Shown here: piece by piece, positions 1 to 56,540 of the stretch
Layout of the letters: each line of letters begins with the position of its first letter
Position numbering within the stretch: position 1 is the first letter of the stretch
Assembly (NCBI GenBank): GCA_947627195.1
Contig: CANQVC010000001.1
Coordinates: forward strand, 28,618-92,617
DNA length: 64,000 bases
Direction of reading: 5' to 3'
DNA from: an uncultured Bacilli bacterium
Lineage (GTDB): Bacteria; Bacillota_I; Bacilli_A; ML615J-28; CAG-698
Made by a program: the position numbers and the translations under genes
Notes under the pieces: generated by a model
Told to the model about the DNA's origin: nothing
Database searches by the model: none
Seen by the model: only the letters and a program-made list of their open reading frames with translations

Positions 1-2
1 TA

Positions 3-8243: not shown

Positions 8244-8256
8244 TGATTAAATATTT

Positions 8257-8305
8257 AGGAATAAAGAATAAAAAAATTATATAAATAAAAATATTCTTTA
8301 TTCCT
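8257..8305. repeat. Perfect 14-bp inverted repeat (aggaataaagaata / tattctttattcct) with a 21-nt A-rich loop
   Basis: Read directly from the sequence. It lies between the giant gene stop (8243) and the RBS of the next gene. No U-tract follows it, so it is not a canonical intrinsic terminator. Confidence 0.7.
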
Positions 8306-8330
8306 CATCTATTATTAATGAAGGAGGAAT

Positions 8331-10811
8331 ATGGAAAAACTTAAAGTAAGAGTAACACTTATTATTGTTTTTATTTTACTTACAATCATTACAGCTTTTA
8401 CTCTTTTCTATAATATGTATATCCAACAATTCTTTTCGGATATTAATCATGATATATTTATTCATCAAATTGAATCATATTCTGATCAAATAAATATAAA
8501 AATAGAAGAAGAAAGAAAAGAATTACAAAGAAAAGTAAATGATTATTTAAATCAAAACAAAACAACTGAAGAAATAATGAGTGTAGATGAATTAAAAAAT
8601 AATTATCAAATTATAATTTATCAAGAAGAAAATATTCTTCCCTCTGTTAAAAATAATTTTTTATTAGAATCTTATTTTATTGGATATGAAAAAAATATTT
8701 TCACCAATTATTCTTCAAATGAAAGTATTATTATATATCCAATAGAAACAAATGATGAAACAATATTATTTATTCATCCTGTATTTGAATTTATTGAAGA
8801 AATAACCAAACAAAATAGTTATAATGGTTCATATTTTATTGTCACATCAGAAATGGATACTGTATATCAAAAAGAATATTCATCATTAGGCTTTGATGAA
8901 TATATAGGTAAACCAAGATATTCATTTACTCAAAATGAAGAACATTATGAAAAAGATAGTGTCGATGGTAAAAGTTCATATGTCTATTTTGATACAATTG
9001 ATAATTCCTTAGAAACAGATCGTATATATTATTTAGTAGTTGTCTATTTAACAAAAACTCTAAAATCATCATATAAATCTGTTACAATATTTTCAATTGT
9101 ATATGCATTATTTGCCATTGGTTGTGCGATTCTTTGTGCATGGGGTGGTTATAAAGTAATTGAACATCGTACTGAAGATTTCTTAAGAACTTCATTTACA
9201 TATCGTCGTAATAAGAAAATAATAATTAAAATAACTAAAAATGGTAAGATTTGTCGAAAGAATTATGTTGCAAATCAATCTATTTTAGGAATGAAAAAAG
9301 CTAAATATTTAGAAAATATTTTAGTATATCAACCAATTGAACAAGTAATGGAAAAAATTCATGATCAAGATACATTTGAAATAACTGTTAAAGATCATGA
9401 TAAAGAAGACATTGTTTTACTTTGTACAGTATATGCGCAATTAAAAAATTATATTTTAATTTGTCAAAATGTTACTGAAGAAAGTCATGAAAGTCAAAGA
9501 ATTAAAGCCATTGCTTGGTATAATAGTGTCACAAATCTTCCTAATTTAAATAAATTAAAAGAAGATTTAGATAATGCTTTAACTAAAATAAAAGATGAAC
9601 ATCAAGGATCTATTATAATTGTTGACATTAAAAAGTTTAGAGCAATAAATCGTGTCTTTGGTAGAAATAATGGTGATTTAATATTACAAAAAGTTGCTGA
9701 ACAACTAGCGACATTAAGAGATGAACATATTGATTTATATCATATGGATACTGATATCTTTGTTTTATTACTTCATGATTATCTAAAAATTGAAGAAGCA
9801 ACACAAAAATCATTGCAAGATATTCGTAATATCTTTAAACAACCATTTGAAGTTAGAGGTAATTTATTATCTATTCAAATTAAAATGGGTGTATGTTATT
9901 TAGAAAAAAGTGCAATGATGAATTCAGATGTAGCTATTAAAAACGCCAAAAATGCTCTTAAGAGTGTCAAAGGTAGTAGAAATACTGATGTAGCTATATA
10001 TGATGTTAAAGTTGGACTAGCAACTTCTCAAGATACTTTAATAGAAAGTGATTTAATTAAAGGAATTCAAAATGAAGAATTTATTATGTATTATCAACCA
10101 CAATATTCTTTGATTACAAAGAAAATCGTTGGCTTTGAAGCTTTAATTCGTTGGAATAATCCTAAATATATTAAAATATCTCCTGAAACTTATATTAAAG
10201 TAGCAGAACAAAATAATATGATTATTGAAATTGGTAATTTAGCATTCCATATGATTTTCAAGAAAATGAAAGAATTAGAAGGAATGAATATTACAATGTC
10301 AATTAATGTTTCTCCAGTTCAATTATTACAAGAAGGATTTGTTCATCAATTCATTTCCTTAATTGAACAATATAAAATAAATCCTAAAATGTTAGCTGTG
10401 GAAATAACAGAAACATTCTTAATGGAATCATTTGATGAAGTTATTCATAAACTTCGTCAATTGAAAGATTATGGCATATCAATTCATTTAGATGATTTTG
10501 GTACTGGATATTCTAGTATGTTATATTTAAAAGAATTACCAATTGATGCTATTAAGATTGATAAAGAGTTTACTAAATATATTATGAATGATAAATATAG
10601 TAAAGCAATAGTTAGTAAAATAATCTCATTAACAAAAACATTAGAATTATTAGTAATTGTTGAAGGGGTTGAAACAGAAAAACAATCAGAAATGTTATCT
10701 AAATTTGGTTGTGATGTCATTCAAGGATATTTAATTGGTAAACCAATGGATGAAGAAGAAATGTTAAAAGTGATTGATAAATACAATCACCCAAATAAAG
10801 CAAAGGAGTAA
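8331..10811 (+). CDS. Membrane sensor protein: TM, extracytoplasmic domain, TM, PAS-like, degenerate GGDEF, intact EAL (predicted c-di-GMP phosphodiesterase)
   Basis: RBS GGAGGA precedes the ATG. The GGDEF position reads HMDTDIF, which is degenerate. The EAL set is complete: FEALIRW, SINVS, EITE, DDFGTGYSS, KIDK, EGVET, QGY. Confidence 0.85.
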   Translation: MEKLKVRVTLIIVFILLTIITAFTLFYNMYIQQFFSDINHDIFIHQIESYSDQINIKIEEERKELQRKVNDYLNQNKTTEEIMSVDELKNNYQIIIYQEENILPSVKNNFLLESYFIGYEKNIFTNYSSNESIIIYPIETNDETILFIHPVFEFIEEITKQNSYNGSYFIVTSEMDTVYQKEYSSLGFDEYIGKPRYSFTQNEEHYEKDSVDGKSSYVYFDTIDNSLETDRIYYLVVVYLTKTLKSSYKSVTIFSIVYALFAIGCAILCAWGGYKVIEHRTEDFLRTSFTYRRNKKIIIKITKNGKICRKNYVANQSILGMKKAKYLENILVYQPIEQVMEKIHDQDTFEITVKDHDKEDIVLLCTVYAQLKNYILICQNVTEESHESQRIKAIAWYNSVTNLPNLNKLKEDLDNALTKIKDEHQGSIIIVDIKKFRAINRVFGRNNGDLILQKVAEQLATLRDEHIDLYHMDTDIFVLLLHDYLKIEEATQKSLQDIRNIFKQPFEVRGNLLSIQIKMGVCYLEKSAMMNSDVAIKNAKNALKSVKGSRNTDVAIYDVKVGLATSQDTLIESDLIKGIQNEEFIMYYQPQYSLITKKIVGFEALIRWNNPKYIKISPETYIKVAEQNNMIIEIGNLAFHMIFKKMKELEGMNITMSINVSPVQLLQEGFVHQFISLIEQYKINPKMLAVEITETFLMESFDEVIHKLRQLKDYGISIHLDDFGTGYSSMLYLKELPIDAIKIDKEFTKYIMNDKYSKAIVSKIISLTKTLELLVIVEGVETEKQSEMLSKFGCDVIQGYLIGKPMDEEEMLKVIDKYNHPNKAKE

Positions 10812-10817
10812 AAAAAT

Positions 10818-12686
10818 ATGCATATATTAACTATCTTATTTGCGGAACTTAAAATTAATAATGCTGGTGCTGTAGTATTATCTATATTAGCATTCTTTGC
10901 TATTCTAGTTGGATTATATTTTTTATGCCGAAGTGTTATTAAAGAATTTAAACGCATAAGAGATGAAAAAATCAACTTAATCGAAGGATTAGAAAGTAAG
11001 AATGATTTATTATCTGACATTGATTATTACATAAGTAAAATGTCAACTTCTGGCTCCTTTACTTTAATGTTAATTGAACTTACTTCATATGGCGATGTTA
11101 TTAGTGCATTTGGAGAACGTTCAGCTGTCACAGTATTAACAAAAGCAGCTCACAAAATTCAAAGTGTTTTACCTAAAGGCTGTCAAATGACAAGATATAA
11201 AGAAAATCAATTTTTGATTTTCTATAAAAATGTCATGGATAAAGATATTGTTACTGAAAAAGCTGAATTAATAATGGAAGCAATGCAAGATAATATCAAA
11301 GTTATGGGAAATGCCAATGTACGTTTAATTGGTAATATGGGTATAACATTTTATCCAATTCATGCAAGAAGTACTAAAGAATTATTAAAGAATTTAAATC
11401 TTGCTTTATATTTAGCTCGTAAAAATGGTAATAATCAATTCTTAATATATTCTAATGATAATCAAAAAGAAGTTGATAATCTTGCTTATTATCAACAAAT
11501 CAATGAAGGTATTAAACAAAAAGAATTCTGTTTGTTTTATCAACCAATTGTTGATATGAATAGTAATGAAGTAATTGCTTTAGAAGGATTACTTAGATGG
11601 AATCATCCAACATTAGGCGTTGTTCCTCCATATAAATTTATTAATATCATGGAACAATCTGGTGATATTATTTGGGTTGGTAACTGGGGCTTTGAATCTT
11701 TAGTTAAAGAATATTTTGAAGTAACTAAAGAATGTCCAGATAAAAAGATTATGTTTACATTAAATCTTTCACCTAAACAATTAATTTATGAAAACTTAGT
11801 AAATGATTTTGCGAAAATAGTTCGTAAATATAAAATTAATACTAGTGACTTTTGTTTTGAAGTAAATGAAATTACTTTATATGGAAAAGATCCTGTTCTA
11901 ACAAAAAATCTTGATAAATTAAATGAATTAGGTTTTAAAATAGCTATTGATGGATATGGTGTTGATTATGGTATGATGATGACTAAATCAACAAATCAAG
12001 CACCAATTAATTATATTAAGTTAGATAGAGACTTTGTTGAACAAATAAGTGACCCAATAAATCAAAAAATGTTAGATATGTTACTTGTTTATTCTGAAGA
12101 AAGACAAGTTACAATTATTGCACAAGGAATTGAAACCCAAGAAAATGTTAATGCCTTAAAAGAACATAAAATTTATTATGGACAAGGATATTTCTATTCA
12201 ATGCCATTGGATGCGGAAGATTCTATTGCTTATATTAATCACGAACAACGTAGATTTAATTCTGGTGATGGATCACAACATATTTCAGTAGAAGAATTAG
12301 ATGAAAAATTCAAAACTAATGAAAATAAACAAGAAGAACTAAAACAAGAAGATAAAACTAAAGTAGAACCTACTAAAGAAGATAAAGTTCCAAAAGAAAA
12401 TAAACAAGAGGAACCAAAACAAGAAGAAAAACCTAAAGTAGATCCTACTAAGGAAAATGAAGTTCCAAAAGAAAATAAGCAAGAAGAACTAAAACAAGAA
12501 GATAACCCTAAAGTAGAATCTACTAAGGAAAATGAAGTTCCAAAAGAAAATAAGCAAGAGGAATCAAAACAAGAAGAAAAACCTAAAGTAGAACCTACTA
12601 AAGAAAGTAAACCTAGGGATAAAAAATCTAAAGTAGTAAACAAAGACAACAAAGATTCTACTTCAGGAAAGAATAACAAAAAATAG
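10818..12686 (+). CDS. Single-TM protein with degenerate GGDEF and degenerate EAL plus a K/E/P-rich repeat tail (candidate c-di-GMP receptor rather than enzyme)
   Basis: RBS AAGGAG. The GGDEF position is YKENQF. EAL motifs are altered: EGL for EAL, IDGYGVDYG for DDFGTGYSS, QGIE for EGVE. The C-terminus carries four 25-aa repeats. Confidence 0.8.
   Translation: MHILTILFAELKINNAGAVVLSILAFFAILVGLYFLCRSVIKEFKRIRDEKINLIEGLESKNDLLSDIDYYISKMSTSGSFTLMLIELTSYGDVISAFGERSAVTVLTKAAHKIQSVLPKGCQMTRYKENQFLIFYKNVMDKDIVTEKAELIMEAMQDNIKVMGNANVRLIGNMGITFYPIHARSTKELLKNLNLALYLARKNGNNQFLIYSNDNQKEVDNLAYYQQINEGIKQKEFCLFYQPIVDMNSNEVIALEGLLRWNHPTLGVVPPYKFINIMEQSGDIIWVGNWGFESLVKEYFEVTKECPDKKIMFTLNLSPKQLIYENLVNDFAKIVRKYKINTSDFCFEVNEITLYGKDPVLTKNLDKLNELGFKIAIDGYGVDYGMMMTKSTNQAPINYIKLDRDFVEQISDPINQKMLDMLLVYSEERQVTIIAQGIETQENVNALKEHKIYYGQGYFYSMPLDAEDSIAYINHEQRRFNSGDGSQHISVEELDEKFKTNENKQEELKQEDKTKVEPTKEDKVPKENKQEEPKQEEKPKVDPTKENEVPKENKQEELKQEDNPKVESTKENEVPKENKQEESKQEEKPKVEPTKESKPRDKKSKVVNKDNKDSTSGKNNKK
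12318..12614 (+). repeat. In-frame tandem repeat, four 75-nt units encoding KENKQEE(L/P/S)KQE(D/E)xxKVExTKExxVP
   Basis: Units start at 12318, 12393, 12468 and 12543. They are near-identical at both the DNA and protein level. Confidence 0.9.
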
Positions 12687-12695
12687 TAATACATA

Positions 12696-12730
12696 AAAGG
12701 ATTGATTCATTATTGGATCATCCTTTTTAT
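12696..12730 (+). terminator. Rho-independent terminator after the GGDEF*/EAL* gene
   Basis: Hairpin aaggattgat...atcatcctt followed by ttttt. Confidence 0.6.
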
Positions 12731-12847
12731 TATCTAAATATACATAATTTACTCGTATAAAACAGTTTTCATCATCAAATAATAAATAAAAAATAAAATC
12801 AAGTTATAGTACAGATTATGAAATTTTAAAAAAATATGGATTACTTC

Positions 12848-12876
12848 TTGACAGAAAATGCAAAATAATATAAAAT
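12848..12876 (+). promoter_or_regulatory. Sigma-A-type promoter
   Basis: TTGACA, 17 nt spacer, TAAAAT, about 75 nt upstream of the GTG start at 12954. Confidence 0.55.
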
Positions 12877-12953
12877 ATTGTCATAGGTTTTATTGAACAA
12901 ATAAATTAAAAAAGCATGTATCAACAAAATTACATCGTATTGGGGGCTTTGGT

Positions 12954-14084
12954 GTGGAAATACTGAATAATATATTGTGGATACTCGTATTAATCGAAAT
13001 GATTTTCATTCATTGCTTTATGGTTGATTTATTTTTTGAAAGAAAAATGGCAAAATGGAAAGTAACATTAGTTTGCTTAGTAGTTGGTGTTGTATTACTA
13101 ACTGTATCATTTTTGTTAATTCCAGATATGTCTGAAAATATTAATCTAGCGGGATGCTATATTTTATTAGGTGTAATATTTTTAATTCCATTAGGTTTAT
13201 GCTATAAAGTATCTATAAAGAAGTTAATATTAGTTTCACTAATTGTATGGATATATATTTCATTAGGATTATTCCTAGGAATATTTGTTTCATTTTTCTT
13301 TAATGATTATCATGTTTTAATAACATTCATTGTCCAAACATCATGTCATGTTTTATATTTAATTTTATTTAGAAAATTCATTTATAATATATTTATTCGA
13401 ATATTTGAAGAAATGGATAGTCAAGTAGAATTAAAATTCTTAATTACATCATTTATTACTTATGCAACATTAATTGCTGGAAGCTATGCTCTAATATTTA
13501 ATGATTATGATTGGATAAAATTATGCTTTGTTGTATTATTTGGTGTTGATGTTTCCATGTATTTTTCTATTATAATCAATTTAATTGATGTAACACAATC
13601 AAGAAAAACAATGCGTACAATGGTTTATATAGATGGAATTACTAAATTACCAAATCGTAATGCATTCATTGCTGATTTCAATGAAAAAGTAGAAAAGAAT
13701 GATAAATTTTGTATTGTATTCATTGATTTAGATAGATTTAAATCAATTAATGATGAACATGGACATAATGCAGGAAATAGATATTTAAAATTCTTTGCTG
13801 ATTATGTTAAAGAATATTTCCCTGAAGATTTCTTTTATCGAATCTATGGAGATGAATTCTTATTATTATCAAATGATGAAAAGTTTGAAATTGAACAAAA
13901 AATGAAACATTGTCAAAAAGCAATTAAAAAAGAAAAATTCTTAAATGGTATGTTTTTAGGATTTTCATTTGGAACTGTAAGTTATCCAGATGATGGCGTA
14001 AGTCGTGAAGAATTGGTAATGAAAGCTGATCAAAAGATGTATTCAGAAAAACAAGGTAAAACTGAAAATCGAATATTTGATTAA
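12954..14084 (+). CDS. Polytopic membrane protein with a C-terminal GGDEF domain (YGDEF variant; putative diguanylate cyclase)
   Basis: GTG start 6 nt after TGGGGG. The first ~200 aa contain about 6-7 hydrophobic segments. The GGDEF domain reads FIDLDRFKSINDEHGHNAGN...RIYGDEFLLL. There is no RxxD I-site. Confidence 0.8.
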   Translation: MEILNNILWILVLIEMIFIHCFMVDLFFERKMAKWKVTLVCLVVGVVLLTVSFLLIPDMSENINLAGCYILLGVIFLIPLGLCYKVSIKKLILVSLIVWIYISLGLFLGIFVSFFFNDYHVLITFIVQTSCHVLYLILFRKFIYNIFIRIFEEMDSQVELKFLITSFITYATLIAGSYALIFNDYDWIKLCFVVLFGVDVSMYFSIIINLIDVTQSRKTMRTMVYIDGITKLPNRNAFIADFNEKVEKNDKFCIVFIDLDRFKSINDEHGHNAGNRYLKFFADYVKEYFPEDFFYRIYGDEFLLLSNDEKFEIEQKMKHCQKAIKKEKFLNGMFLGFSFGTVSYPDDGVSREELVMKADQKMYSEKQGKTENRIFD

Positions 14085-14098
14085 AAATAAGAATGACA

Positions 14099-14124
14099 TA
14101 AAGGGCAATATATGCCCTTTTTTA
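14099..14124 (+). terminator. Rho-independent terminator
   Basis: aagggca-atata-tgccctt followed by tttt. Confidence 0.75.
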
Positions 14125-14264
14125 ATATAAAAATATAACAAAATAAATTATTTTATTATATAAAAATTTCCTATTATAAAATATATTTTAAGAAAATATT
14201 TCCTTATTTCTTACTAACAATTTTTTCCTATATTAATTTTTATTTCAATTTTAAGTTCATTTAT

Positions 14265-14293
14265 TTGACATAAATTTCAAAATGTGATAAAAT
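14265..14293 (+). promoter_or_regulatory. Sigma-A-type promoter with extended -10
   Basis: TTGACA, 17 nt spacer (ending tga, giving TG-n), TAAAAT, about 80 nt upstream of 14373. Confidence 0.55.
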
Positions 14294-14372
14294 TCATATA
14301 TAAAATGGGTTATTATATATTTTTTATTATAAACTGACAAAATTTACCTAAAACTTTGGAGGATATAATATC

Positions 14373-16160
14373 ATGCATAAAAATTTGCTCATTCTCTTTT
14401 CTTTTTTACTCATTTCCTGTTTTTTAATAGGATGTGATCATACTAATAACGATGATGTAATTACTTTAAAAATTGCAACTTCAATTGAAAAAGAAAAAGA
14501 AATTAAAACAGTTGTTTCGCAATTTAACTCATCACAAGAACAATATAATATAGAATTAGATGTTTCTAAAAGTGATGATAAATTATATTATTATTTAAGA
14601 AACGATGCAATTGACGCTGATATGGTTACATTTGATAATTTAAATGATGCTAATCTTTATCAAAAACAATTACAACCATTAAATCAATTTGAAGCAGTTG
14701 CAAAATATCAAAGTACAATTATAAATTATATAAAAACTGAAGATGACATATTAAATGCTATTCCTGCTCCAGGTCATTTTTATACTCAATGTTACAATAA
14801 AGATTTATTTGAACAACACAATTTCAATTATCCCGAAACAATTTCTGATTTAATCAATTTAGCAAGAAGAATGCAAGATTATCAAGGATCTTGTATTACT
14901 TATGGTGATATTGATATGTATATGAACATTTTAATGGAAATTGCTATTCCAACATTCGTCGCTTCCACAAAAGGTGTCACATTTATGAAAGATTTTTATG
15001 TTGGCAATACTAGTATTGAAGAAAGCCCATATTTAAGTGAATGGCAAACAATATTTTTAGAATATCTTTCTTTATTTCGTTATGAATATTATAAAACATC
15101 ATTTGAAGGATATAGTATTGAAGATGCTAGTAATATATTCTTTAATGGAAAATATCATTCAATATTAAATACTCCTGAATTTGATGCTGATTATGAATAT
15201 AATCAAAGAGACCCTAATTTTGAATGTGTTTTATATCCATTTGTTGGTAGAACTGCTAATCAAAAATGGGTTGCTTCTAAACCATTATATTATATTGGTA
15301 TTCAAAAAAAAGCTATCCAAAATGAAGATCATTTAAATGGAATTGAAGCATTTTTAGAATATTATGTATCAGAAGAAGGACAAATGGCAGCCTTATCTGA
15401 TGAAAATGGTAATACTAGAAATAATTGCGTATCATATGTGAAAGACATTCCAATTGTTTTAAATGAATTTCATCAACCATTAGAAGAAGCCTTACGTACA
15501 GGCAAAGTATGTTTAGTTGATACATTTGAAAGTATTTTTTCTTTAGTAAGTAATCATTTAAAAGAATATGTCAATGATGAATTAAGTATGAATGATTTAA
15601 TTAGAACAATTGATTTAGAAATAAAAGAACATTCTAAAGAAGAAAAAGCTGATTATAATGTCACATCATCATTTGATTATCCAGAAAAAACAATAACATC
15701 AGAAACTAGAATTGGCAATTATATTATTGATGCCGTTCGTTTACAAACAAATGTCAATGCTGCAATATTACCTAGTAATATTATTGATGGCAATTTATTT
15801 AGTGGTAATCTATATGAAAGTGATTTACCAATCCTATTCAATGATACAACATGTTATGCTGTCCAAATAAGAGGATCAGGATTAAAGAAAATAGTTTTTT
15901 CAATGTCTAATGAGAACTTCTTATTAATATCTGGAATTAGAATTCATCGTGATTCATCTGATTTATATTTCTTAAACAATCAAAAGATAAGAGATGATCA
16001 ATTAGTTTATATTTTAATCCCTGAAATATATTTAGATGAATATCAAGATGATATTGTTGCCCTTGGAAAAAGTTTTTCCATAATTAATTTATTACAAGAA
16101 TATTTTAAAACAGAAAATAAAATAACTCCACCAAAAAAAGATGGTAGATATGGAGAATAA
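14373..16160 (+). CDS. Lipoprotein: family-1 solute-binding-protein-like N-domain fused to a 5'-nucleotidase C-terminal-like (nucleotide-binding) domain
   Basis: Signal peptide with lipobox LIGC. The N-part has a sugar-type SBP pattern. The C-part RIGNYIIDAVRLQTNVNAAILPSNIIDGNLFSGNLYESDLPILFNDTTCYAVQIRGSGLKKIV matches the 5'-nucleotidase_C signature (lGNliaDA...G.it..dl..vlPF.n.l....l.G..lk). No metallophosphoesterase domain is present and no ABC permease or ATPase gene is nearby. Confidence 0.7.
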   Translation: MHKNLLILFSFLLISCFLIGCDHTNNDDVITLKIATSIEKEKEIKTVVSQFNSSQEQYNIELDVSKSDDKLYYYLRNDAIDADMVTFDNLNDANLYQKQLQPLNQFEAVAKYQSTIINYIKTEDDILNAIPAPGHFYTQCYNKDLFEQHNFNYPETISDLINLARRMQDYQGSCITYGDIDMYMNILMEIAIPTFVASTKGVTFMKDFYVGNTSIEESPYLSEWQTIFLEYLSLFRYEYYKTSFEGYSIEDASNIFFNGKYHSILNTPEFDADYEYNQRDPNFECVLYPFVGRTANQKWVASKPLYYIGIQKKAIQNEDHLNGIEAFLEYYVSEEGQMAALSDENGNTRNNCVSYVKDIPIVLNEFHQPLEEALRTGKVCLVDTFESIFSLVSNHLKEYVNDELSMNDLIRTIDLEIKEHSKEEKADYNVTSSFDYPEKTITSETRIGNYIIDAVRLQTNVNAAILPSNIIDGNLFSGNLYESDLPILFNDTTCYAVQIRGSGLKKIVFSMSNENFLLISGIRIHRDSSDLYFLNNQKIRDDQLVYILIPEIYLDEYQDDIVALGKSFSIINLLQEYFKTENKITPPKKDGRYGE

Positions 16161-16162
16161 AT

Positions 16163-19100
16163 ATGGAGAAAAATATGAAAATAAAAATTAATAAAATTAA
16201 TTTATTTATATTATTATTAGCTTTTAGCTGTTTATTTTTAATTTCCGGATGTAAAACAGAAGAAAAAATAAAAAATACCCCAGTTGTAGTTGATTTTGAA
16301 GTTCGAGGTATTAAAGAAAAATATTCGCAAAATGAAATTGTTGACGTAGGACAATGGAAAATAATTTTACATTTATCAGATGAATCAACCACAACAATTG
16401 ATGCATTTGATCCTAATCTAACAATAGGTGAAGTTAATACTGATGAAATTGGTGAAAAAACATTTAGTATCATCTATTCATTAAGTGATGGACAAACAAT
16501 TGAAAAAAGTTACACATATGAAGTAATTCAAATTGTTGTTACCCTTGATTTTAATGGCGGAACATATGATGATAAATCATCAACAGAACTAGTTGCAACT
16601 GCAATGCAAGTAGATGTAAGTCAAATAATACCAACTAAATTAGATGAATTTGGTACACCTTTAAAATTTTCTGGTTGGTTTTATGATCAAGCATTAACAA
16701 CTCGTGTTAATTATGTAGCTGATGGCTTTATATCTACATCTGAAAGTATAACAATATATGCGGGATATGATGTTGATTATACTAATATATTTGAATATGA
16801 AATTCGTGATGATAATACTGTTGAAATATTAGGAATCACTAATGATGGTATTCTTAACTTTATGATGGAACCAGAACTAGTAATTCCTGAAACAATTGAA
16901 TTATATCCTGTTACATCTATTGGTGATTTATTTATCTTTACAAGAGACCCATTAACAAATGAAAAAGATGAAACATTTAGTTGGACAGTATTTATCAATA
17001 TTGATACAATAGTTTTCCCTGAAAATAGTAAAGTTACTCATATTGGTAAAAGAGCATTTGAAGCAATGCAAATTTCTAGTGTTCAATTTCCTAATACATT
17101 AGAAACAATTGGTGAAGCTGCTTTTCGTTCCACAGCTTTAGCAGGAGATTTAGTTTTACCAGCATCATTAAAAACAATTGGTGATTATGCATTCCAATAT
17201 GTATCAGGAGCTTTAGAAAATATTTCTTTTGCTAGTGGTAGTGAATTAAAACACATTGGACGTTATGCTTTTGCTTCATGTAGTACAGTAGTATCAATTA
17301 CCTTACCTAATTCATTAGAAGAAATTATGTCAAATGCCTTTGATGGCTGTACACAAATTGAAACAATTACTATTCCAAGTAATGTTCATTCAATTGGTTT
17401 ATATGCATTTAAATCAATGAGAAGCTTAAAAGAAATTAATGTTGATCCTAATAATGCCACATATAGTAGTTTAGATGGTGATCTATATTCAATTGATCAT
17501 AAAACAATTATTCGTTATTGTTATGGAAAACAAGAAGAAACATTTGTTTTACCAGAAACTGTGGAAATAATTGAAGAAGGAGCATTTAATATTTTTAATG
17601 ATATTACTTCTTTAAAAACAATAGTTTTAAATGAAGGATTAAAATATATTGGCTCTGATGCTTTTTCGGGATGTTCAATGACATTTAAACTTCCCTCAAC
17701 ATTAAATGAAATTGCTACCCAAGCATTTAATGGTTGGAATGGCGATTCATTTGAAATAGACCCTGCTAATCAAACATTTACTGTATATCAAGGTATTTTA
17801 TATAGTAAAGATATGAAAACATTATATGCTGTACCAAGAAACTTAAAAGATGTTACATCATTAGTATTAGATCCAAGAGTAGAACTTATTAAAAGTCATG
17901 CATTTTGTGGAAACACAACAATTCGTTATATAACAATTCCTGAAAATAGTAATTTAAATAAAATTGATGAATATGGATTAAATATTTATTCAATGTCAAG
18001 TTTAAAAGGAGTTTATATTTTCAAACAAACTCCATTTGAAGTAGTTAATGGTGCTTTTTATGAACAACATAACTTTGTGGCAAATAATGTAACAGTATTT
18101 GTCTTAGGTAATAATTTAAATAGTTATAAAGAGGCTTGGAAAAATTATCAAAACAATTCAGAAACAGTTGAAAATTATAATATTCAAGATAATATCGTTG
18201 ATTGTTTAAGTGCGAAAGAAAGATTATTAGATTATCTAAAAGAAACGACAAAATACATAAGTTATGAAACTTATAATAAAGGAGTAACACCTTATATTAA
18301 ACAAGATTTTGCTTCCATGAAATATACTTTCCAAGCAACTCTTGATTATTTAATATCATTATATCAAGAAGATGATATTAATAATGATGTATATAATTAT
18401 TTCAAATTATTTGAACAACAATTATATGAAATTGCTGCTGATTATTTCTTAGATACTTATAATAATTTACATTCTTTTGATAATTTAGATTTAAAATATT
18501 TAGCTGATATTGTTACAAGATACAATGAATGTCCAAAAATAATTCAAGATGCCATTAATGAAAATTATTTAAAATTAAAATCATTATATGATGAAATCAA
18601 TAATATTGAAGCTACTAGACAACAAATTATTAATGAACTTATTAATTTCCCATGTAGTGCTACGCAATTTGATGCGGAAAAATTTAATGAACTAAATCAA
18701 AGATTTATTGCCGCTAATATGGATGCTATTTCTTTACCAGAATCAGTATTTTATAAATATCAATTATTAGATGCCTCAAGTAAAATTGCTGAATTATTAG
18801 CTATTGAAACATTTTCTTTAGATAACAAAGTAAGAGCAAGAACATTAATTCAAGGTGATTTTACTAATATGGGAATTAATAGTATCTTAGAATCTTTCTT
18901 AAGAACAGATGAAAGTCGTAAAGACTTATATCGTTATCAAGATTATCTAACAAAAGCCATGCAATTTAGTGAATATGAAGCAAATGATATTGTTGCTATC
19001 CAAGAAGAAGTAGCATCATTTGATTTATCTAGTGAATGTCCAATAGAAACAATGGAAGAATTATTTAGAAAAATTGATTCGTTAACAAACATCTATGAAT

Positions 19101-19732
19101 TAGATAGTTTTGAATATAATTACATCGATAAAATATATGCGATTCATCTAAAACATGATATGTTATTTGTAATCAATAATGGCAATGAAATAACTGAAGA
19201 AAATAGTATTGATTTATATTTATCATGTATGAATGTGGAAATGTGGGTTATGATGTTGATGTATAGTGTTGATTATTCAACATTCCAAGAACAATTAGCT
19301 ACTGAATTTAGCCTATATGATGTTAAAAATCAAGAAATTACAACTTATATCAATGATCAATTATCATCTATTTATAGTGATATTGAAGATTTATCAACAT
19401 TTTCATCAACAAAATATTTAGAATTAGTTTCTAAAATAGAAAAATTAAATGGACATTATGAATTAATGGATTTTGAAGCTTATCATCAATATTTCATTTT
19501 AGGAATTTCTTATCAAATTGATCAATTATTAAATCAATATACATCAGTAACTAAAGATAATTATCAAGAAATTGATTATATCTTAAATGGTTATTATGAT
19601 AAAGAAAATGATGAAACAATTAATGGTATTGAATCATTAATTGCTCAATCAGGATTATATGAAGATTTATCAACATATATTTATCGTTATGATGAATATC
19701 TTGAATTCTTAAATTTATTCAATGAATTTTAA
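16163..19732 (+). CDS. Lipoprotein with a Listeria-Bacteroides repeat, BspA-type leucine-rich repeats and a ~550-aa helical C-terminal region
   Basis: Lipobox LISGC. VTLDFNGGTYDD...FSGWFYDQALTTRV is Flg_new-like. There are repeated IGxxAFxxCxxLxxIxIPxxVxxIGxxAF units. The start lies 2 nt after the upstream stop; an alternative ATG is at 16175. Confidence 0.8.
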   Translation: MEKNMKIKINKINLFILLLAFSCLFLISGCKTEEKIKNTPVVVDFEVRGIKEKYSQNEIVDVGQWKIILHLSDESTTTIDAFDPNLTIGEVNTDEIGEKTFSIIYSLSDGQTIEKSYTYEVIQIVVTLDFNGGTYDDKSSTELVATAMQVDVSQIIPTKLDEFGTPLKFSGWFYDQALTTRVNYVADGFISTSESITIYAGYDVDYTNIFEYEIRDDNTVEILGITNDGILNFMMEPELVIPETIELYPVTSIGDLFIFTRDPLTNEKDETFSWTVFINIDTIVFPENSKVTHIGKRAFEAMQISSVQFPNTLETIGEAAFRSTALAGDLVLPASLKTIGDYAFQYVSGALENISFASGSELKHIGRYAFASCSTVVSITLPNSLEEIMSNAFDGCTQIETITIPSNVHSIGLYAFKSMRSLKEINVDPNNATYSSLDGDLYSIDHKTIIRYCYGKQEETFVLPETVEIIEEGAFNIFNDITSLKTIVLNEGLKYIGSDAFSGCSMTFKLPSTLNEIATQAFNGWNGDSFEIDPANQTFTVYQGILYSKDMKTLYAVPRNLKDVTSLVLDPRVELIKSHAFCGNTTIRYITIPENSNLNKIDEYGLNIYSMSSLKGVYIFKQTPFEVVNGAFYEQHNFVANNVTVFVLGNNLNSYKEAWKNYQNNSETVENYNIQDNIVDCLSAKERLLDYLKETTKYISYETYNKGVTPYIKQDFASMKYTFQATLDYLISLYQEDDINNDVYNYFKLFEQQLYEIAADYFLDTYNNLHSFDNLDLKYLADIVTRYNECPKIIQDAINENYLKLKSLYDEINNIEATRQQIINELINFPCSATQFDAEKFNELNQRFIAANMDAISLPESVFYKYQLLDASSKIAELLAIETFSLDNKVRARTLIQGDFTNMGINSILESFLRTDESRKDLYRYQDYLTKAMQFSEYEANDIVAIQEEVASFDLSSECPIETMEELFRKIDSLTNIYELDSFEYNYIDKIYAIHLKHDMLFVINNGNEITEENSIDLYLSCMNVEMWVMMLMYSVDYSTFQEQLATEFSLYDVKNQEITTYINDQLSSIYSDIEDLSTFSSTKYLELVSKIEKLNGHYELMDFEAYHQYFILGISYQIDQLLNQYTSVTKDNYQEIDYILNGYYDKENDETINGIESLIAQSGLYEDLSTYIYRYDEYLEFLNLFNEF

Positions 19733-19752
19733 AAACGAAAGAAGGGGTGCAT

Positions 19753-22700
19753 ATGATAGAAAACGGAGATATACTCGTTAGTTTTTCTATTCAGACAATT
19801 GAAAAATGTGTCATTCAATGTCATCAACACATGGAAGTTAAAAGAATGCCATTGTCTGAATTTTTCCAAACTTACTTATCTCCTGAAAAGCTTGGTATCG
19901 AAGAAGATGGCTACAATTATGAATCTTTTTGTGCCTTTGCTTTAAAAGAAAAAGCAAGTACGATAACAACATATTATTCTAAACAAAATTTATGTTTATA
20001 TCGTTTTATGTTTTTCCAATCTGCTCATTCTAATATTATATTGTGCTCCTTAATTCGTATAACGAATACTGAAAATAAAGATTATTTCACCAATCGTGAT
20101 GTCTTAACAGGAGTTTATACTAGAAGTACTTTATTACAAAAATTAGAGAAAAGTTTTAAAGACGAAACTTGTCATAATTATTCTATCGTTTTACTTGATT
20201 TAAATGATTTTAAACATGTTAATGAAATATATGGTAGAGGTATCGGTGATAAAAGTTTAAGTGAAATTGCTTTAAGTTTACAAAATATTTTCCATAATCA
20301 AATGATATGTCGATATGGTGGCGATGAATTCTTTGTTTTACTAGAAAATTGTGATAATATACAAATTGAGGAATATATTCAAAAATTATTAGATTATGAA
20401 TATTATGTATCAGATCAAGATCGTAGTAAAATAAGAGTAACAATTAGAGCAAGTATTGTAAGTATTAATGATGAAATAAAAAGTATGGCAGAAGCACTTG
20501 ATGCTGTAACATCAACACTTGCGGAAGTAAAGAAAAAACGTCGCAATGCGGTAATGATATATCAAGGTAAAACTTATTTTAGTCGAGCTAAAACAGATCC
20601 ATTAAAACATTTATCAATGCATATTCATTCTAAACCAAAAAAGAAAAAAGAAAATATGCGTTTATTTACTGAAGAATTAAAAGCGCGAAGAATTCGTAAT
20701 TTTGCTATTTTATTAGTTTTAGTCTTATTATTATTATGTTCATCAATTTTAGTTGGTAGTATATTAACAAGACAATTAAATACTAAAAAAACAGAAGAAG
20801 CAACTAATATTATGAATGATATTTCTAGTCAAATATCTTCAAATATTTCTTCAAGTATTGAAAGTTGGAATAGTCAATTAATAATTGCTAGTAGAATGCT
20901 TTCTAATATTGAAGAAGGCGATAATTATGAAGAATATTTAAATCGAACATTACAAATAGTTGGTAACACAATTACCTTCGATGAAATAGCATTATTACTA
21001 GAAAGTGGTGACTTATATTTTAATTCAACTACTGAATATAATATAGCTTCCGAAGATCTTGCCAAAAATATCATTATTGAAAGAAAAGAATATATAGGTA
21101 GTCTATATATTAATTATTGGGGTGAAAGAATTGCTTTTGCTATTCCATATGATGGTATTGAATCAGAACTAAATGATCCAAATAGCAATCGTATTTATGG
21201 ATTAGTAGGTTTATTAACAATCGAAAATTTCTCTAAATTATTATATTCTGATGCTTTTTCTGAACAGGCTTATATGTCATTAGTCCAAAAAGATGGTAAT
21301 AGATTAATTACCTCATTAAATGTTAATGAAGGTACATATGCCCCATATAATGTCTATAATGCCTTTAAGAAATATGCTAATGAAAGTGAAATGGAAGTTT
21401 TAGAACAATCTTTAAATGAAGGTAAAACTAATATCATGAATTTACAAGTTGGTAAAACAAATTTCTTAACATATTGTACGAAAATAGATGATGATTCAAT
21501 TGATTGGCGAATTATTATAATGGTATCAACTGATATCGTCTTAAGTAGTGTTACAGGGGTATTTGAAAGATTAGGATATGGTGTATATATTGCATTATTT
21601 TTCTTTGTATGTATTGTATCTGTAATGGTTTATATTCATAATCAATTAAGAACGAAAAATCAAATGTTAACATATATGGATAAATTAACTAACGATATAA
21701 ATGATGAAAGATTTAAGATTGATGCCGAAACATTAATTAAAAGAAATGGTTCTACTAATTATTGTTTAGTTTATATGAATTTTTCTAATTATAAATATGC
21801 TCGAGAATTATTTGATACAGCAACAATTAATAAAATATTAAAAGAAGTATTTGAAGTAGTTCATAAATCACTTAATTTCAATGAATTAGAAACTAGATTA
21901 TCAGTTAATAATTATGTTATTTTAATGGAATATACAACTGAACAAGTAATTAAACAACGATTAATGGAAATTCAAAATCGTCTTAACGAAACAATTCATT
22001 TAGATGATTTAATGAGCATTATTGTTTCATTCGGTGTATATATTTTACCACCACAATATAAAAGTATCGTTGTTGCCATTGACCGTGCTAGTGAAGCCCA
22101 AAAACTTGCGGAAAACAGAATTGATTCTCATATGATTTCATTCTTTGATGAAAAGATGATGGCTCATGCAATGGAAGAAATGGAATTAGAAAAGAATCAA
22201 GATAAAGCCTTAAAATCTGAAGAATTTACTGTATATTATCAACTTAAAAAAGATATTCAACAAGATAAATGGGGTGGAGTAGAAGCATTAGTTCGATGGA
22301 AAGATCCTGTGAAAGGAATGGTATCTCCAGGTAAATTTATTCCTTTATTTGAAAAGAATGGTTTTGTAATTAAAGTTGATTTATATGTATTTAGTTGTGT
22401 ATGTCGAGATATGCGTCGCATGTTAGATGAAGGAATTACGCCAGTTCCTGTCAGTGTCAACTTATCAAGAAGACATTTAATGATTGATCATTTCTTAGAT
22501 GAATTTGTTACCATTATGAATCAATTTAATATTCCAAGAGAATTAATCGAATTTGAATTAACTGAAGGAATGATTTTTGAAAACGAATCTATTTTATATG
22601 ATGTCATTCATCAAATTCATGAAATCGGATGTCGTTGTTCTATTGATGATTTTGGTAGTGGGTATTCATCATTAAATATGTTGAAAGAATTTGATTTTGA

Positions 22701-22953
22701 TGTTATTAAATTAGATCGTAAATTCTTTTATGGAATTAATGGTTTCGATGAAAACTCAAAAACAATTGTTCGTTCATTAACGGAATTATCTCATCAATTA
22801 GGTAAAGAAGTAGTTGCGGAAGGAATAGAAGATGAACAACAAGTATCATTCTTAAGAAATATTTCTTGTAATTTAGTTCAAGGATATTATTATGCTAAAC
22901 CAGTTCCATATGATGAATATATTGTTAAATTAAATCAACATAAAGTTCAATAA
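19753..22953 (+). CDS. GGDEF (canonical), TM, dCache-like sensor, TM, degenerate GGDEF, EAL protein (predicted bifunctional c-di-GMP enzyme)
   Basis: ATG at 19753 lies 5 nt after AAGGGG; the ORF-track GTG at 19747 is less likely. GGDEF1 is [11 protein letters not shown]. Two TM segments flank ~260 aa that end [10 protein letters not shown] (Cache-like). The second GGDEF position is SVNNYVIL. The EAL set is complete: [41 protein letters not shown]. Confidence 0.85.
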
Positions 22954-22968
22954 AATTTAAAAAATATA

Positions 22969-22997
22969 TTGAAAATAATGTAATAAAATGTTATAAT
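22969..22997 (+). promoter_or_regulatory. Sigma-A-type promoter of the metK leader
   Basis: TTGAAA, 17 nt spacer, TATAAT. Confidence 0.65.
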
Positions 22998-23002
22998 GTA
23001 AG

Positions 23003-23136
23003 TACCATAAAGAGAAGGTTAGAGACAAGCTCAATGATCCTTCAGCAACCATTCCTAAAAAAAGGAAACGGTGCTAAAACTTGTATGATGGGATTTATAA
23101 AAATTAAAGTCCCGTTTAATTACGGGATTTTTTATA
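23003..23136 (+). ncRNA. SAM-I (S-box) riboswitch with intrinsic terminator
   Basis: AGAGAAGG..AGAGAC..GCTCAATGATCC..CAGCAACC...GGTGCTAAAAC matches the S-box core (GCAACC, GGUGCUAA). Terminator gtcccgt-ttaatt-acgggat plus tttttt at 23109-23135. It lies directly upstream of metK. Confidence 0.85.
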
Positions 23137-23174
23137 TTCCTCATCTAATTAATAAATCATATTTGGAGGAAATT

Positions 23175-24323
23175 ATGAACGAAAAAAAATTTTTTACATC
23201 AGAATCAGTAACCGAAGGACATCCTGATAAAGTATGTGATTTAATTGCTGATAGCATCTTAGATGCTTTCTTAGAAGGAGATAAAAATGCTCATGTTGCT
23301 TGTGAAGTTGTCGCAACAACTGGCTTAGTTATGGTTATGGGAGAAGTAACTGCTGACACATATGTTGATATTCAAGGAGTTGTCAGAAGAGTTGTCGATA
23401 AAATTGGATACAATCGTGGTAAAATTGGATTTGATGCCGAAAATTTAGCCGTAGTTGTGACTTTAGATGAACAGTCAACAGATATTGCCATGGGAGTTGG
23501 AAACGATACAGGCGCAGGAGATCAAGGAATGATGTTTGGCTTTGCCACAAACGAAACTAAAGAATATATGCCTGCTCCAATTATGCTTAGCCATAAATTA
23601 ACTAAAAGATTAGCCGATTGTCGTAAGTTTGATTTAGATGATATTTTAAGACCTGATGGTAAAGCCCAAGTAACTGTTGAATATGAAAATGGTAAAGTAA
23701 AAAGAATTGATAATATTGTTGTATCAACACAACATAGTAATAAAATATCAATTGAAACTTTAAGACAATATGTAATGAATAATGTAATTAAAAAGGTAAT
23801 TCCTAGTGAATTATTAGATGAAAATACTAAATATTATATCAATCCTACAGGAAGATTTGTCATTGGTGGACCAAAAGGTGATACAGGATTAACAGGAAGA
23901 AAAATAATTGTTGATACATATGGTGGATATGCTCATCATGGTGGTGGAGCATTTAGTGGTAAAGATCCATCAAAAGTTGATAGAAGTGCTGCTTATATGG
24001 CAAGGTATGTTGCTAAAAATTTAGTAGCAGCAGGTTATTGTGATAAATTAGAAGTAGGATTAAGTTATGCCATTGGGGTTAGTGAACCAACATCAATTAT
24101 GATTGATGATTTTGGTACAAGTAAAATAGGTAATGATGAAATTATTAAAATAATTCGTCAAGTTTTTCCATTAACGCCAAAAGGTATAATTGATTATTTT
24201 GATTTAAGAAGACCAATATATGCCATGACTACTAATTATGGACATTTTGGTAAAGATTATCTTCCATGGGAAAAATTAGATAAAGTCGATGAATTAAAAA
24301 AATTATTAGATAGTATCAAATAA
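23175..24323 (+). CDS. metK: S-adenosylmethionine synthetase
   Basis: RBS GGAGGA, ATG at 23175. The protein begins [34 protein letters not shown] and [19 protein letters not shown] are present. The ORF-track start at 23034 overlaps the riboswitch. Confidence 0.97.
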
Positions 24324-28373: not shown

Positions 28374-28379
28374 TTTATT

Positions 28380-28555
28380 GCCTGGAGAGTTCGCGTTTGT
28401 ACACATATGCGAACCGAACAATATTACATAGGGAGTTGAGGCGTTTCTGGCGTGAATGCTCATATTTATATGAGAATCCCGAAGCTACGCAAAAAGAGAT
28501 TTCCACCTTAGCGTGAACGAAGGTTCACATCAGTATTAACGGCTTTCTGGGTTTT
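28380..28555 (+). ncRNA. Structured small RNA, candidate 6S RNA (ssrS-like)
   Basis: An island of roughly 45% G+C in AT-rich DNA with its own promoter. The 5' CCUGGAGAG (28381-28389) pairs with the 3' CUUUCUGGG (28543-28551). A central hairpin CUCAUA-UUUA-UAUGAG sits at 28459-28474, exactly mid-molecule. Length is ~175 nt. ACCGAAC lies at RNA position ~33-39. Confidence 0.5.
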
Positions 28556-28587
28556 AATTTATTATAATAATTATCATTATTGTCATT

Positions 28588-49531: not shown

Positions 49532-49540
49532 TGATATACT
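49532..49540 (+). promoter_or_regulatory. Possible extended -10 promoter (TGaTATACT) of the sipW operon
   Basis: TG-n-TATACT with a poor -35. It lies ~125 nt upstream of the sipW start. Confidence 0.35.
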
Positions 49541-49664
49541 ACATGTAATAAATAAAATAATAAAAAATATTAAATATAATTGTAGGAAATAATCAATTAA
49601 TAATAATTTATAAATATTTAATTTATATATAATATATATAATCAAAGAGGTGCATAAAAACAAT

Positions 49665-50366
49665 ATGAAAAACATAAAATTATTTAGTTTCCTAAATAAA
49701 GTCTTTGCAGTAATTTTATATAGTTTTATTATCTTAGCTATTTTATTTTTATATGTTGTTATTAAATCAAAGAAAAATAATGATGTTGTAAGTATTATGA
49801 ATCATCAGATAAGAATAGTAACATCTGAATCAATGGAAAAAGGGAGCAAAGAAACAAATCAATATAAAATTAAATCTCTTCCTTTAAAAAGTATGATCAT
49901 AATTGAACAAGTAGATAATAACCATGAATATGAATGGTATCAATCATTAAAAGTAGGGGATGTATTAACATTTAAATATGTTTATATTAAACAAGAAACA
50001 ATTACCCATCGTATTATAAATATTCAAGAAGTTGATAATGGTTTTATCATTACATTACAAGGAGATAATCAAGATATTGAAAGTAATACATCTTCTCAAA
50101 CAATTGATACAAGAGATATTAATAGTCCTAATTACATAATTGGTAAAGTAGTTTATAAAAATGTTTTATTAGGAAAAATAATATATATTTTAAAACAACC
50201 AATTGGTATTGGATGTTTAATAATTCTACCTTCATTTATCATTATTATTTTAGAAATAATTAAAATAATTAATATTATAAATGAAAAGAAAAAGAAAGAA
50301 ACTGAAGAAGAAATTAACTTGTTAAAGAAGAGAATAGAGACTTTACAGAAAGGAGGAGAACAATGA
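49665..50366 (+). CDS. sipW: Signal peptidase I, SipW (ER/archaeal) type
   Basis: N-terminal TM. Catalytic-Ser motif VTSESMEK (compare SGSMEP). ITHRII (compare THRIV) and LQGDNQ are present. A C-terminal TM is present as in SipW. The start is either ATG 49665 or GTG 49650. Confidence 0.8.
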   Translation: MKNIKLFSFLNKVFAVILYSFIILAILFLYVVIKSKKNNDVVSIMNHQIRIVTSESMEKGSKETNQYKIKSLPLKSMIIIEQVDNNHEYEWYQSLKVGDVLTFKYVYIKQETITHRIINIQEVDNGFIITLQGDNQDIESNTSSQTIDTRDINSPNYIIGKVVYKNVLLGKIIYILKQPIGIGCLIILPSFIIIILEIIKIINIINEKKKKETEEEINLLKKRIETLQKGGEQ

Positions 50367-50983: not shown

Positions 50984-50996
50984 AAAGGAGAAGAGA

Positions 50997-54731: not shown

Positions 54732-54752
54732 AACAAATATAGTGAAGATAAA

Positions 54753-55247: not shown

Positions 55248-55261
55248 ATGAGGAGGAATAA

Positions 55262-56492: not shown

Positions 56493-56497
56493 TATTT

Positions 56498-56540
56498 TAA
56501 ACGGTTTGATTTATCAAAGCTTGATTTATCAAGCCGTTTA
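56498..56540 (+). terminator. Operon-end hairpin (taaacgg...ccgttta) enclosing a direct repeat ttgatttatcaa x2
   Basis: Read directly from the sequence. The following T-tract is weak (aatttatt). Confidence 0.45.

Follow-up and report, generated by a model that had tools for sequence, protein, structure and literature searches.

Most signaling networks built on c-di-GMP (cyclic dimeric guanosine monophosphate) comprise dozens of enzymes and many effectors, and cause and effect are hard to separate in them. It is established that c-di-GMP riboswitches switch on adhesins in Firmicutes such as Bacillus and Clostridioides; Clostridioides difficile, for example, has riboswitch-controlled adhesins and pili, similar to the Bc3-5 system of Bacillus thuringiensis. 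Bc3-5 is a tandem c-di-GMP-I (class I) ON riboswitch of the surface-protein operon cspABCDE, and its overlap mechanism has been validated experimentally (PMC4759541). We analyzed a window of 64,000 nucleotides from an uncultured Bacilli bacterium (C1:28618-92617, where C1 is contig 1 of genome G000, an assembly of 1.84 Mb with 78 contigs and 98% completeness), which contains four genes for GGDEF and EAL domain proteins, P1 to P4, packed into 14.6 kb. We consider it rather probable that this island is the complete set of c-di-GMP turnover enzymes of a low-GC gut Bacillota with a small genome, and that the island and a riboswitch lying upstream of the window make up a closed circuit controlling a surface-fibre and adhesin operon. 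A first-pass annotation of the same DNA had held that there was little work on c-di-GMP control of surface adhesins in this low-GC lineage; tandem ON riboswitch control of surface proteins had in fact already been published for low-GC Bacillota (PMC4759541).

Other described systems bear on parts of the locus. In the NspS-MbaA system of Vibrio cholerae, a periplasmic binding protein controls a GGDEF-EAL enzyme. To our knowledge, the CoCoPALM-type system is widespread and experimentally unstudied. Bell et al. (2024), who named the "CoCoPALM" type in one paragraph, make no mention of c-di-GMP, riboswitches or GGDEF/EAL proteins. LapD is a degenerate GGDEF-EAL receptor for c-di-GMP (PMC3032553). 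FimX is another such receptor.

The window has a G+C content of ~25%, and nearly all of its genes lie on the + strand. The island consists of four open reading frames (ORFs), each matching Pfam models well above the curated cut-offs:

8331-10811, + strand: P1, 826 amino acids; Pfam GGDEF 77.8 bits, EAL 230.5 bits
10818-12686, + strand: P2, 622 amino acids; Pfam GGDEF 54.4 bits, EAL 171.1 bits
12954-14084, + strand: P3, 376 amino acids; Pfam GGDEF 95.5 bits; ~6-7 transmembrane segments; monocistronic
19747-22953, + strand: P4, 1068 amino acids; two GGDEF stretches; Pfam EAL 214.4 bits

By our own arithmetic, random placement would bring four such genes within 14.6 kb with a probability of ~2e-6. 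The first-pass annotation had claimed four GGDEF/EAL genes at 8331-22953, all encoding membrane proteins, with a division of labor legible in their motifs. The genes and their membrane attachment are borne out (hydrophobic segments number two in P1, one in P2, ~6-7 in P3 and two in P4), and residue-level alignments agree with the division of labor, which for P1 and P2 is kept across 16-18 orthologues. EAL domains were judged for activity by E(xL)xxR, N, ExxE, DD(FGxGYSS), KxD, E(GVE) and Q(G), with a Pfam EAL cut-off of 31.3 bits; cyclase domains were judged by GG(D/E)EF together with the metal-binding Asp, the guanine-binding Asn/Asp and an Arg ahead of the motif.

P1 consists, in order, of a transmembrane segment, an extracellular region of ~220 residues, a second transmembrane segment, a PAS-like domain, a degenerate GGDEF domain and an intact EAL domain. 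As first described, its motifs are those of a degenerate GGDEF (MDTDIF) and a canonical EAL site (EAL..R, N, EITE, DDFGTGYSS, K.D, EGVE, QG). When 36 EAL domains are aligned, no catalytic or metal-binding position deviates from the canonical residue in P1, in its 16 orthologues or in P4. The structure model of P1 is confident over the GGDEF-EAL part, and the sensor (residues 30-250) has a predicted local distance difference test score (pLDDT) of ~50-65. P1 is predicted to be an active c-di-GMP phosphodiesterase.

P4 has the most elaborate layout: a cytoplasmic canonical GGDEF domain (RYGGDEF) that also keeps the first Asp, N and GD, a transmembrane segment, an extracellular region of ~270 residues, a second transmembrane segment, a degenerate GGDEF (SVNNY) and an intact EAL. 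This agrees with the earlier reading, with the gene start placed at 19747, and P4 is predicted to be a bifunctional cyclase and phosphodiesterase. P3 is, as the earlier reading had it, a membrane protein with a YGDEF-type GGDEF domain (active site RIYGDEF, with GN in place of GD), and its three full-length homologues all retain RIYGDEF along with the remaining catalytic positions; it remains a candidate diguanylate cyclase. One P3 homologue, P0011, lies at a contig end, where its context is uninformative. P3 and P4 both lack an RxxD I-site five residues before the motif, an allosteric site that is common in diguanylate cyclases and not obligatory.

P2 has a single transmembrane segment at residues 19-37, a GGDEF domain beginning near residue 58 and no further Pfam domain besides EAL. 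It is degenerate in both domains, with YKENQF at the GGDEF position, EGL, DGYG for DDFG, QGIE for EGVE and a non-canonical loop 6. All members of its family (18/18) have lost loop 6 and the second Asp of DDFG, and they keep E..R, N, K and Q. The P2 start lies 7 nucleotides (nt) past the P1 stop, and this stop-to-start coupling recurs in all relatives examined. P2 is predicted to be an inactive partner or a c-di-GMP receptor. Its tail is rich in Lys, Glu and Pro and is encoded by 3.8 copies of an in-frame 75-nt tandem repeat (12321-12606; 89% matches). The repeat tail is absent from the orthologues, which have 474-536 residues as against 622 here; a similarly charged, repetitive tail is found on the partner of the McrB-like protein described below.

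A genome-wide count makes the island the c-di-GMP hub of this genome, a possibility that the first-pass annotation had raised: it holds 3/3 EAL matches and 5/7 GGDEF matches. We considered whether the two GGDEF genes outside the island might be hidden cyclases and rejected the idea, since one is GdpP-like (PAS, degenerate GGDEF and DHH/DHHA1 domains, the type of enzyme that acts on cyclic dimeric adenosine monophosphate) and the other encodes a membrane protein whose motif is the degenerate SDFEY. The RYGGDEF of P4 is the sole canonical GGDEF motif in the genome and that of P3 the sole near-canonical one, so the four genes include every EAL domain and every plausible cyclase domain of the genome. 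The GdpP-like ORF (G000:C13:~18000-20461, minus strand) runs in frame, with no stop, into sequence resembling ribosomal protein L9; either two genes have fused or the stop codon was lost.

On the reading side, PilZ and HD-GYP domains are absent from the genome, as are class II (c-di-GMP-II) riboswitches. The genome does contain a single c-di-GMP-I aptamer (C1:14002-14080, + strand), 14.5 kb before base 1 of the window, which scores 56.6 bits against the Rfam model RF01051 (gathering threshold 35; model positions 1-87). Its promoter, TTGACA-18-TATAAT, matches the sigma-70-type consensus at 12/12 positions. A 15-base-pair (bp) terminator with a T7 run follows, and the 5' arm of this terminator shares 10 nt with the 3' strand of the aptamer; the ligand-bound aptamer and the terminator are thus mutually exclusive, and the riboswitch is predicted to be an ON switch. 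The same overlap design is present in 23/37 related aptamers under a strict rule, and in most of the others with only 4 U. Specificity for cyclic GMP-AMP or for another variant ligand is unlikely: the GGC variant model ranked first in a permissive scan, yet its 51.2 bits lie below its own threshold of 59, and in our own reading of the alignment the distinguishing position is the canonical A.

The absence of PilZ, HD-GYP and class II riboswitches, and the position of the single recognizable reader at the head of the operon, make the riboswitch the likely effector, and the c-di-GMP signal is most likely read there, just outside the window. The first-pass annotation had seen no c-di-GMP riboswitch and had called the effector route open. 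The first statement holds within the window and fails for the locus as a whole; the second is superseded by the sole c-di-GMP-I riboswitch, which heads a same-strand gene array running into the giant gene that flanks P1. A hidden riboswitch inside the island was also considered and discarded, since a permissive Rfam scan of 8000-23100 gave only the S-adenosylmethionine (SAM) riboswitch of metK. That element (S-box; window 23002-23131, 57.1 bits, terminator 23106-23131) lies directly before metK (ORF 23034-24323), and its aptamer overlaps the start of the longest metK ORF, so the true metK start is probably further downstream.

The array spans C1:14179-36860 and comprises fourteen closely packed genes, 22.9 kb headed by the riboswitch:

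Genes 1-4, + strand: paralogous exported proteins; no family match
Gene 5, + strand: SipW-like peptidase
Gene 6 (P0005), + strand: 511 amino acids; N-terminal transmembrane segments, coiled coil, McrB-like nucleoside triphosphatase (NTPase) domain
Gene 7 (P0006), + strand: 819 amino acids; long Lys/Glu coiled-coil tail of ~350 amino acids
Gene 8, + strand: second SipW (SipW2)
Gene 9, + strand: 235 amino acids; no family match
Genes 10-12, + strand: a third SipW flanked by two camelysin/TasA-family proteins
Gene 13, + strand: 245 amino acids; no significant family match
Gene 14 (the giant gene), C1:27231-36860, + strand: 3209 amino acids; its 3' part is window 1-8243

P0005 has Walker A (GISGTGKT) and Walker B (VLDEMN) motifs, matches the McrB structures 6hz4 and 6ut6 at E = 1e-5 and matches the PADLOC model PDC-M26A at E = 4e-35. 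P0006 matched no chain of the Protein Data Bank (PDB), whether searched as a single sequence or as a 15-sequence profile, and gave no Pfam hit. The SipW-type peptidases match NF046067 and TIGR02228, and the camelysin/TasA-like proteins match Peptidase_M73 at 27.5 bits (cut-off 22.5). The model of the first array protein is a beta-sandwich with pLDDT 80.8. None of the operon proteins matched PHROGs. The giant gene gave weak Pfam matches only; the GLUG label that it had been given depends on one sub-threshold match (14.3-18.8 bits as against 20.5) and is weak. Homologous giants follow riboswitches in the related loci L007, L018 and L021. The genome encodes two penicillin-binding protein (PBP) transpeptidases and no sortase, which fits surface display through lipoproteins and SipW-processed proteins. 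The two PBP transpeptidase genes also led us to reject a wall-less Mollicute reading of this organism, yet the records of its relatives are labelled Mollicutes or Acholeplasmatales.

We compared the locus with 40 related genomes and with 19 loci collected through the McrB-like marker protein; the records of these loci carry the labels Mollicutes, Acholeplasmatales, Christensenellaceae and rumen bacteria, and one of them is Acholeplasma granularum ATCC 19168. Nineteen operon loci have enough flank to be informative. P1-P2 orthologues are attached to the fibre operon in 17/19, and the P1-P2 pair therefore passes the test of co-conservation with the operon that here ends in the giant gene. Two arrangements account for these loci. 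Ten run from P1 and P2 through one to three tandem riboswitches into the operon; in the other seven the order is operon, SipW2, P1, P2, and the P1 start overlaps the SipW2 stop. G000 departs from this order in that a module of camelysin genes and the giant gene is inserted after SipW2 and the pair comes behind it. L031 and L032 (labelled Christensenellaceae), with enough downstream flank, have no P1-P2 pair within it, and none was seen in L033 and L034 (same label), whose short flanks keep them out of the count. In every related locus, the ATPase pair lies between SipW-like genes.

The riboswitch travels with the operon as well. In 11 of the 12 loci whose upstream flank reaches ~7 kb or more, a same-strand class I riboswitch lies upstream, and L022 and G001 C11 have one directly before P1. 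Tabulated by genome, riboswitch and EAL presence are associated both across 41 genomes (16/1/4/20; Fisher p = 7e-7) and within the family (16/0/3/6; p = 5e-4), p values that are uncorrected for phylogeny. A second SipW/TasA-type operon in the window (49532-56540) has no c-di-GMP riboswitch, the genome's only RF01051 match being the one that precedes the first operon.

Some individual loci deserve mention in their own right. In the A. granularum locus (L028, NZ_JAFR01000011.1), a P1-like and a P2-like gene are followed by two tandem riboswitches and the operon, beyond which a third riboswitch precedes more genes for exported proteins. L022 (4630-4700) and L023 (3869-3940) have a second class I aptamer-like sequence right after their listed aptamers (…AAAGCAAxCxTAGAGAAATCTAG…ACGCAAAGCTATAGGGCC…), missed at the gathering threshold, and so probably carry tandem switches too. 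Genome G034, of the same order and another family, has three c-di-GMP-I riboswitches and no GGDEF/EAL match; either the enzymes are missing from the assembly or the signal is made elsewhere.

Together, these observations are consistent with the following circuit. P4 would make c-di-GMP, and P3 probably would too; P4 may respond to an extracellular cue together with two lipoproteins encoded in its operon. The c-di-GMP-bound aptamer would sequester the 5' arm of the terminator, so that transcription enters the fibre and adhesin genes. P1, made with the fibre genes on the same or a coupled transcript, would then lower c-di-GMP again, and P2, presumably catalytically dead and translationally coupled, would bind c-di-GMP and modulate P1 or the fibre machinery. 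That P1 is made with the fibre genes is suggested by the want of a convincing terminator or promoter after the giant gene and by the overlap of its start with the last operon gene in seven relatives, and negative feedback by P1 is likely.

The transcription signals and lipoprotein genes of the island are as follows; promoter-like sites are consensus matches and not proof of function:

8257-8305, + strand: AT-rich hairpin with 14-bp stem, 21-nt loop and no U-run; -15.3 kcal/mol, z = -1.8
12695-12728, + strand: intrinsic terminator after P2, a stem then UUUUUAUUAU; -17.5 kcal/mol, z = -4.1, 0/200 shuffles as stable
12848-12876, + strand: promoter-like site of P3; TTGACA-17-TAAAAT, 11/12 consensus
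14100-14120: terminator after P3
14265-14293, + strand: promoter-like site of the lipoprotein-lipoprotein-P4 operon; TTGACA-17-TAAAAT with TG extension, 11/12 consensus
14373-16160, + strand: lipoprotein 1, lipobox LIGC; first gene of the P4 operon
16163-19732, + strand: lipoprotein 2, BspA-type leucine-rich repeat (LRR) protein, lipobox ISGC; Pfam LRR_5 E = 5e-46

The 87 nt that separate the giant gene from P1 yielded neither a terminator call nor a strong promoter call, and the sole hairpin there (8257-8305) is unconvincing as a terminator.

Several points weigh against the closed circuit. The hairpin ahead of P1 is modest, and 22.9 kb separate P1 from the riboswitch; read-through over the 23 kb would have to reach P1 in G000, and internal promoters are likely. 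Between the McrB-like gene and its partner, the array also contains a terminator-like hairpin of 12 bp with a T5 run (L001:11748-11774, equivalent to G000:C1:20747-20773), which may be an internal attenuator. Only two of the ten loci with the pair upstream have a riboswitch before P1, so feedback is not universal. On the enzymatic side, the cyclase activity of the YGDEF variant in P3 is putative, and P3 also has an Asn where the guanine-contacting Asp is usual; binding of c-di-GMP by P2 is presumed only from the retained E, R, N, K and Q. Protein effectors of another type are possible despite the absence of PilZ. Lastly, Foldseek returned only generic beta-sandwich matches for the first array protein (template modelling score ~0.23, with the archaeal bundling pilus 7ueg at rank 9), and the fibre nature of the first operon proteins is putative.

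The input side of the circuit might work in the manner of NspS-MbaA, with a small molecule bound by the extracellular, solute-binding-like lipoprotein 1 switching P4 between its cyclase and phosphodiesterase modes by way of the extracellular domain of P4. The lipoproteins had been described as lying beyond the island, opposite the giant gene; the giant gene does lie at its 5' side, and the lipoprotein genes sit between P3 and P4 as operon partners of P4. The three genes are tightly spaced behind one shared promoter-like site, both lipoproteins have lipoboxes, and ~270 residues lie between the two transmembrane segments of P4. The only full-length homologue of P4 is P0129 (38% identity), which occurs in the same three-gene order in L042, where the counterpart of lipoprotein 2 is 33% identical; the operon thus also passes the co-conservation test, on thinner evidence, recurring in one other contig. 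The ligand could be a nucleoside or nucleotide, an idea that comes from the 5'-nucleotidase C-like part of lipoprotein 1. However, the solute-binding and nucleotidase-C matches of lipoprotein 1 both fall under their Pfam cut-offs (SBP_bac_1, 25.9 as against 26 bits; 5_nucleotid_C, 19.9 as against 23.6), only two homologues of it were found (the LRR gene is next in both), the lipoprotein pair occurs once without P4, in L041, and three instances are known in total. We regard this sensing scheme, which is compatible with the closed circuit, as a tentative possibility.

A second proposal concerns P2, which might act mainly as a post-translational receptor for the fibre machinery in the manner of FimX or LapD and, when loaded with c-di-GMP at the membrane, activate or localize the membrane-anchored McrB-like ATPase or a SipW peptidase, with the riboswitch as one of two layers of control; this too is compatible with the closed circuit. 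Besides its family-wide loss of catalytic residues and retention of E..R, N, K and Q, P2 is membrane-anchored and always encoded beside an operon with an McrB-like gene, and its PDB relatives include LapD (3pjw) and FimX (4j40). Yet these two score far below active EAL enzymes, the closest matches being the active enzymes 4rnh and 6hq4, and by Pfam and topology P2 has neither the periplasmic output domain and HAMP domain of LapD nor the REC and PAS domains of FimX. Moreover, P2 is always coupled to P1 and not to the ATPase, which fits a partner of P1 at least equally well, and the flanks of four related operons, L031-L034, contain no such pair. The first-pass annotation was thus right that both domains of P2 are degenerate; its suggestion of a receptor extrapolated from the lost catalytic residues, and the features that define LapD are missing. 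We consider such a receptor role unlikely.

An extension of the closed circuit that we entertain only as a long shot is that the locus is an excitable loop, in which cyclases that have no I-site open the switch and the same transcript delivers the resetting phosphodiesterase, giving pulsed fibre synthesis, with P2 as a membrane receptor for c-di-GMP that adds a second layer of control by licensing the McrB-derived motor or SipW only at high c-di-GMP. If this were true, one messenger would gate both the transcription and the assembly of an uncharacterized class of SipW-dependent surface filaments, and this genome, with one aptamer and four enzymes, would offer the smallest natural c-di-GMP network for dissecting that logic. 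Finally, the four genes could be independent environmental sensors gathered by chance in an accessory island, their adjacency to surface-protein genes being devoid of regulatory meaning, with P1 and P2 on a weak promoter of their own and acting globally. This account would suit the three or four separate transcription units predicted here, the rarity of P3 and P4 orthologues and their absence from the side of the fibre operon in relatives, and the lack of the whole set in G002, a genome of the same genus that is 84% complete, a lack that points to an accessory module. We hold it to be quite improbable given that P1-P2 adjacency to the operon persists in two arrangements and in many genera (17/19 sufficiently flanked loci), that the start codon overlaps SipW2 in seven of them, and that the genome's only recognizable effector is the riboswitch of that very operon.

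Elsewhere in the window, a full-length match to 6S RNA (RF00013, 57.8 bits) lies at 28376-28557.

Compared with described systems, the closed circuit is closest to Bc3-5, with which it shares a class I aptamer, a terminator whose 5' arm is the 3' strand of the aptamer, a surface-protein operon and a low-GC Gram-positive host; the one to three aptamers of the relatives recall the tandem arrangement of Bc3-5. It differs in its target, which is SipW-dependent, sortase-free and equipped with an McrB-like ATPase instead of consisting of wall-anchored proteins, in the predicted phosphodiesterase and its predicted dead paralogue hard-wired to the operon, and in the presence of one aptamer in the genome with no other known effector. 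Our literature search on c-di-GMP riboswitches in connection with SipW/TasA or Acholeplasma found only a 2008 genome note, in which 14 GGDEF/EAL proteins were counted in A. laidlawii, and the literature searched contains no description of such an operon with a predicted active phosphodiesterase and its dead paralogue attached to it.

The output side resembles the CoCoPALM type in the McrB-type NTPase with its N-terminal transmembrane segments and coiled coil (P0005; the N-terminus of the type is FtsB-like) and in the associated signal-peptidase-family genes, of which the array has three (S26/SipW-like). The place of the McrC partner would be taken by the adjacent P0006 with its coiled-coil tail, in which McrC homology is undetected by sequence. 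As in tapA-sipW-tasA of Bacillus subtilis, dedicated SipW peptidases are encoded beside camelysin/TasA-family genes; unlike that three-gene operon, the array has thirteen to fourteen genes, three peptidases, an ATPase module and a 3209-residue protein, and its control is predicted to be by riboswitch and not by SinR/AbrB. The first four array proteins matched no family, and a TasA fold is only putative there.

P2 is like LapD and FimX in being degenerate in both domains, membrane-anchored and encoded beside a giant surface-protein gene. Apart from the periplasmic, LapG-binding domain and the HAMP, REC and PAS domains that it does not have, it is set apart from them by keeping the Glu of the EAL motif and by being always paired with an active-type EAL enzyme; no LapG-type protease turned up, and no search was aimed at LapG homologues. 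The P4 operon recalls NspS-MbaA in joining a gene for a binding-protein-like lipoprotein to one for a GGDEF-EAL membrane enzyme with an extracellular domain. It departs from NspS-MbaA in the large LRR lipoprotein gene between the two and in the extra canonical GGDEF domain before the first transmembrane segment of P4, and the likeness to NspS is limited by the sub-threshold assignment of lipoprotein 1.

What distinguishes this locus from riboswitch-controlled adhesins already known in Firmicutes is therefore the SipW/McrB-linked output, the constant pair of predicted active and dead EAL proteins, which suggests a built-in feedback or receptor, and the minimal, physically closed network. The genome appears to have two candidate makers, two breakers, a pseudo-enzyme partner and one recognizable reader, all within 37 kb, output operon included, a set small enough to dissect. 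Such a circuit would give a handle on the CoCoPALM-type fibre system, and because the arrangement is present in cultured Acholeplasma granularum ATCC 19168, its predictions can be tested at the bench.

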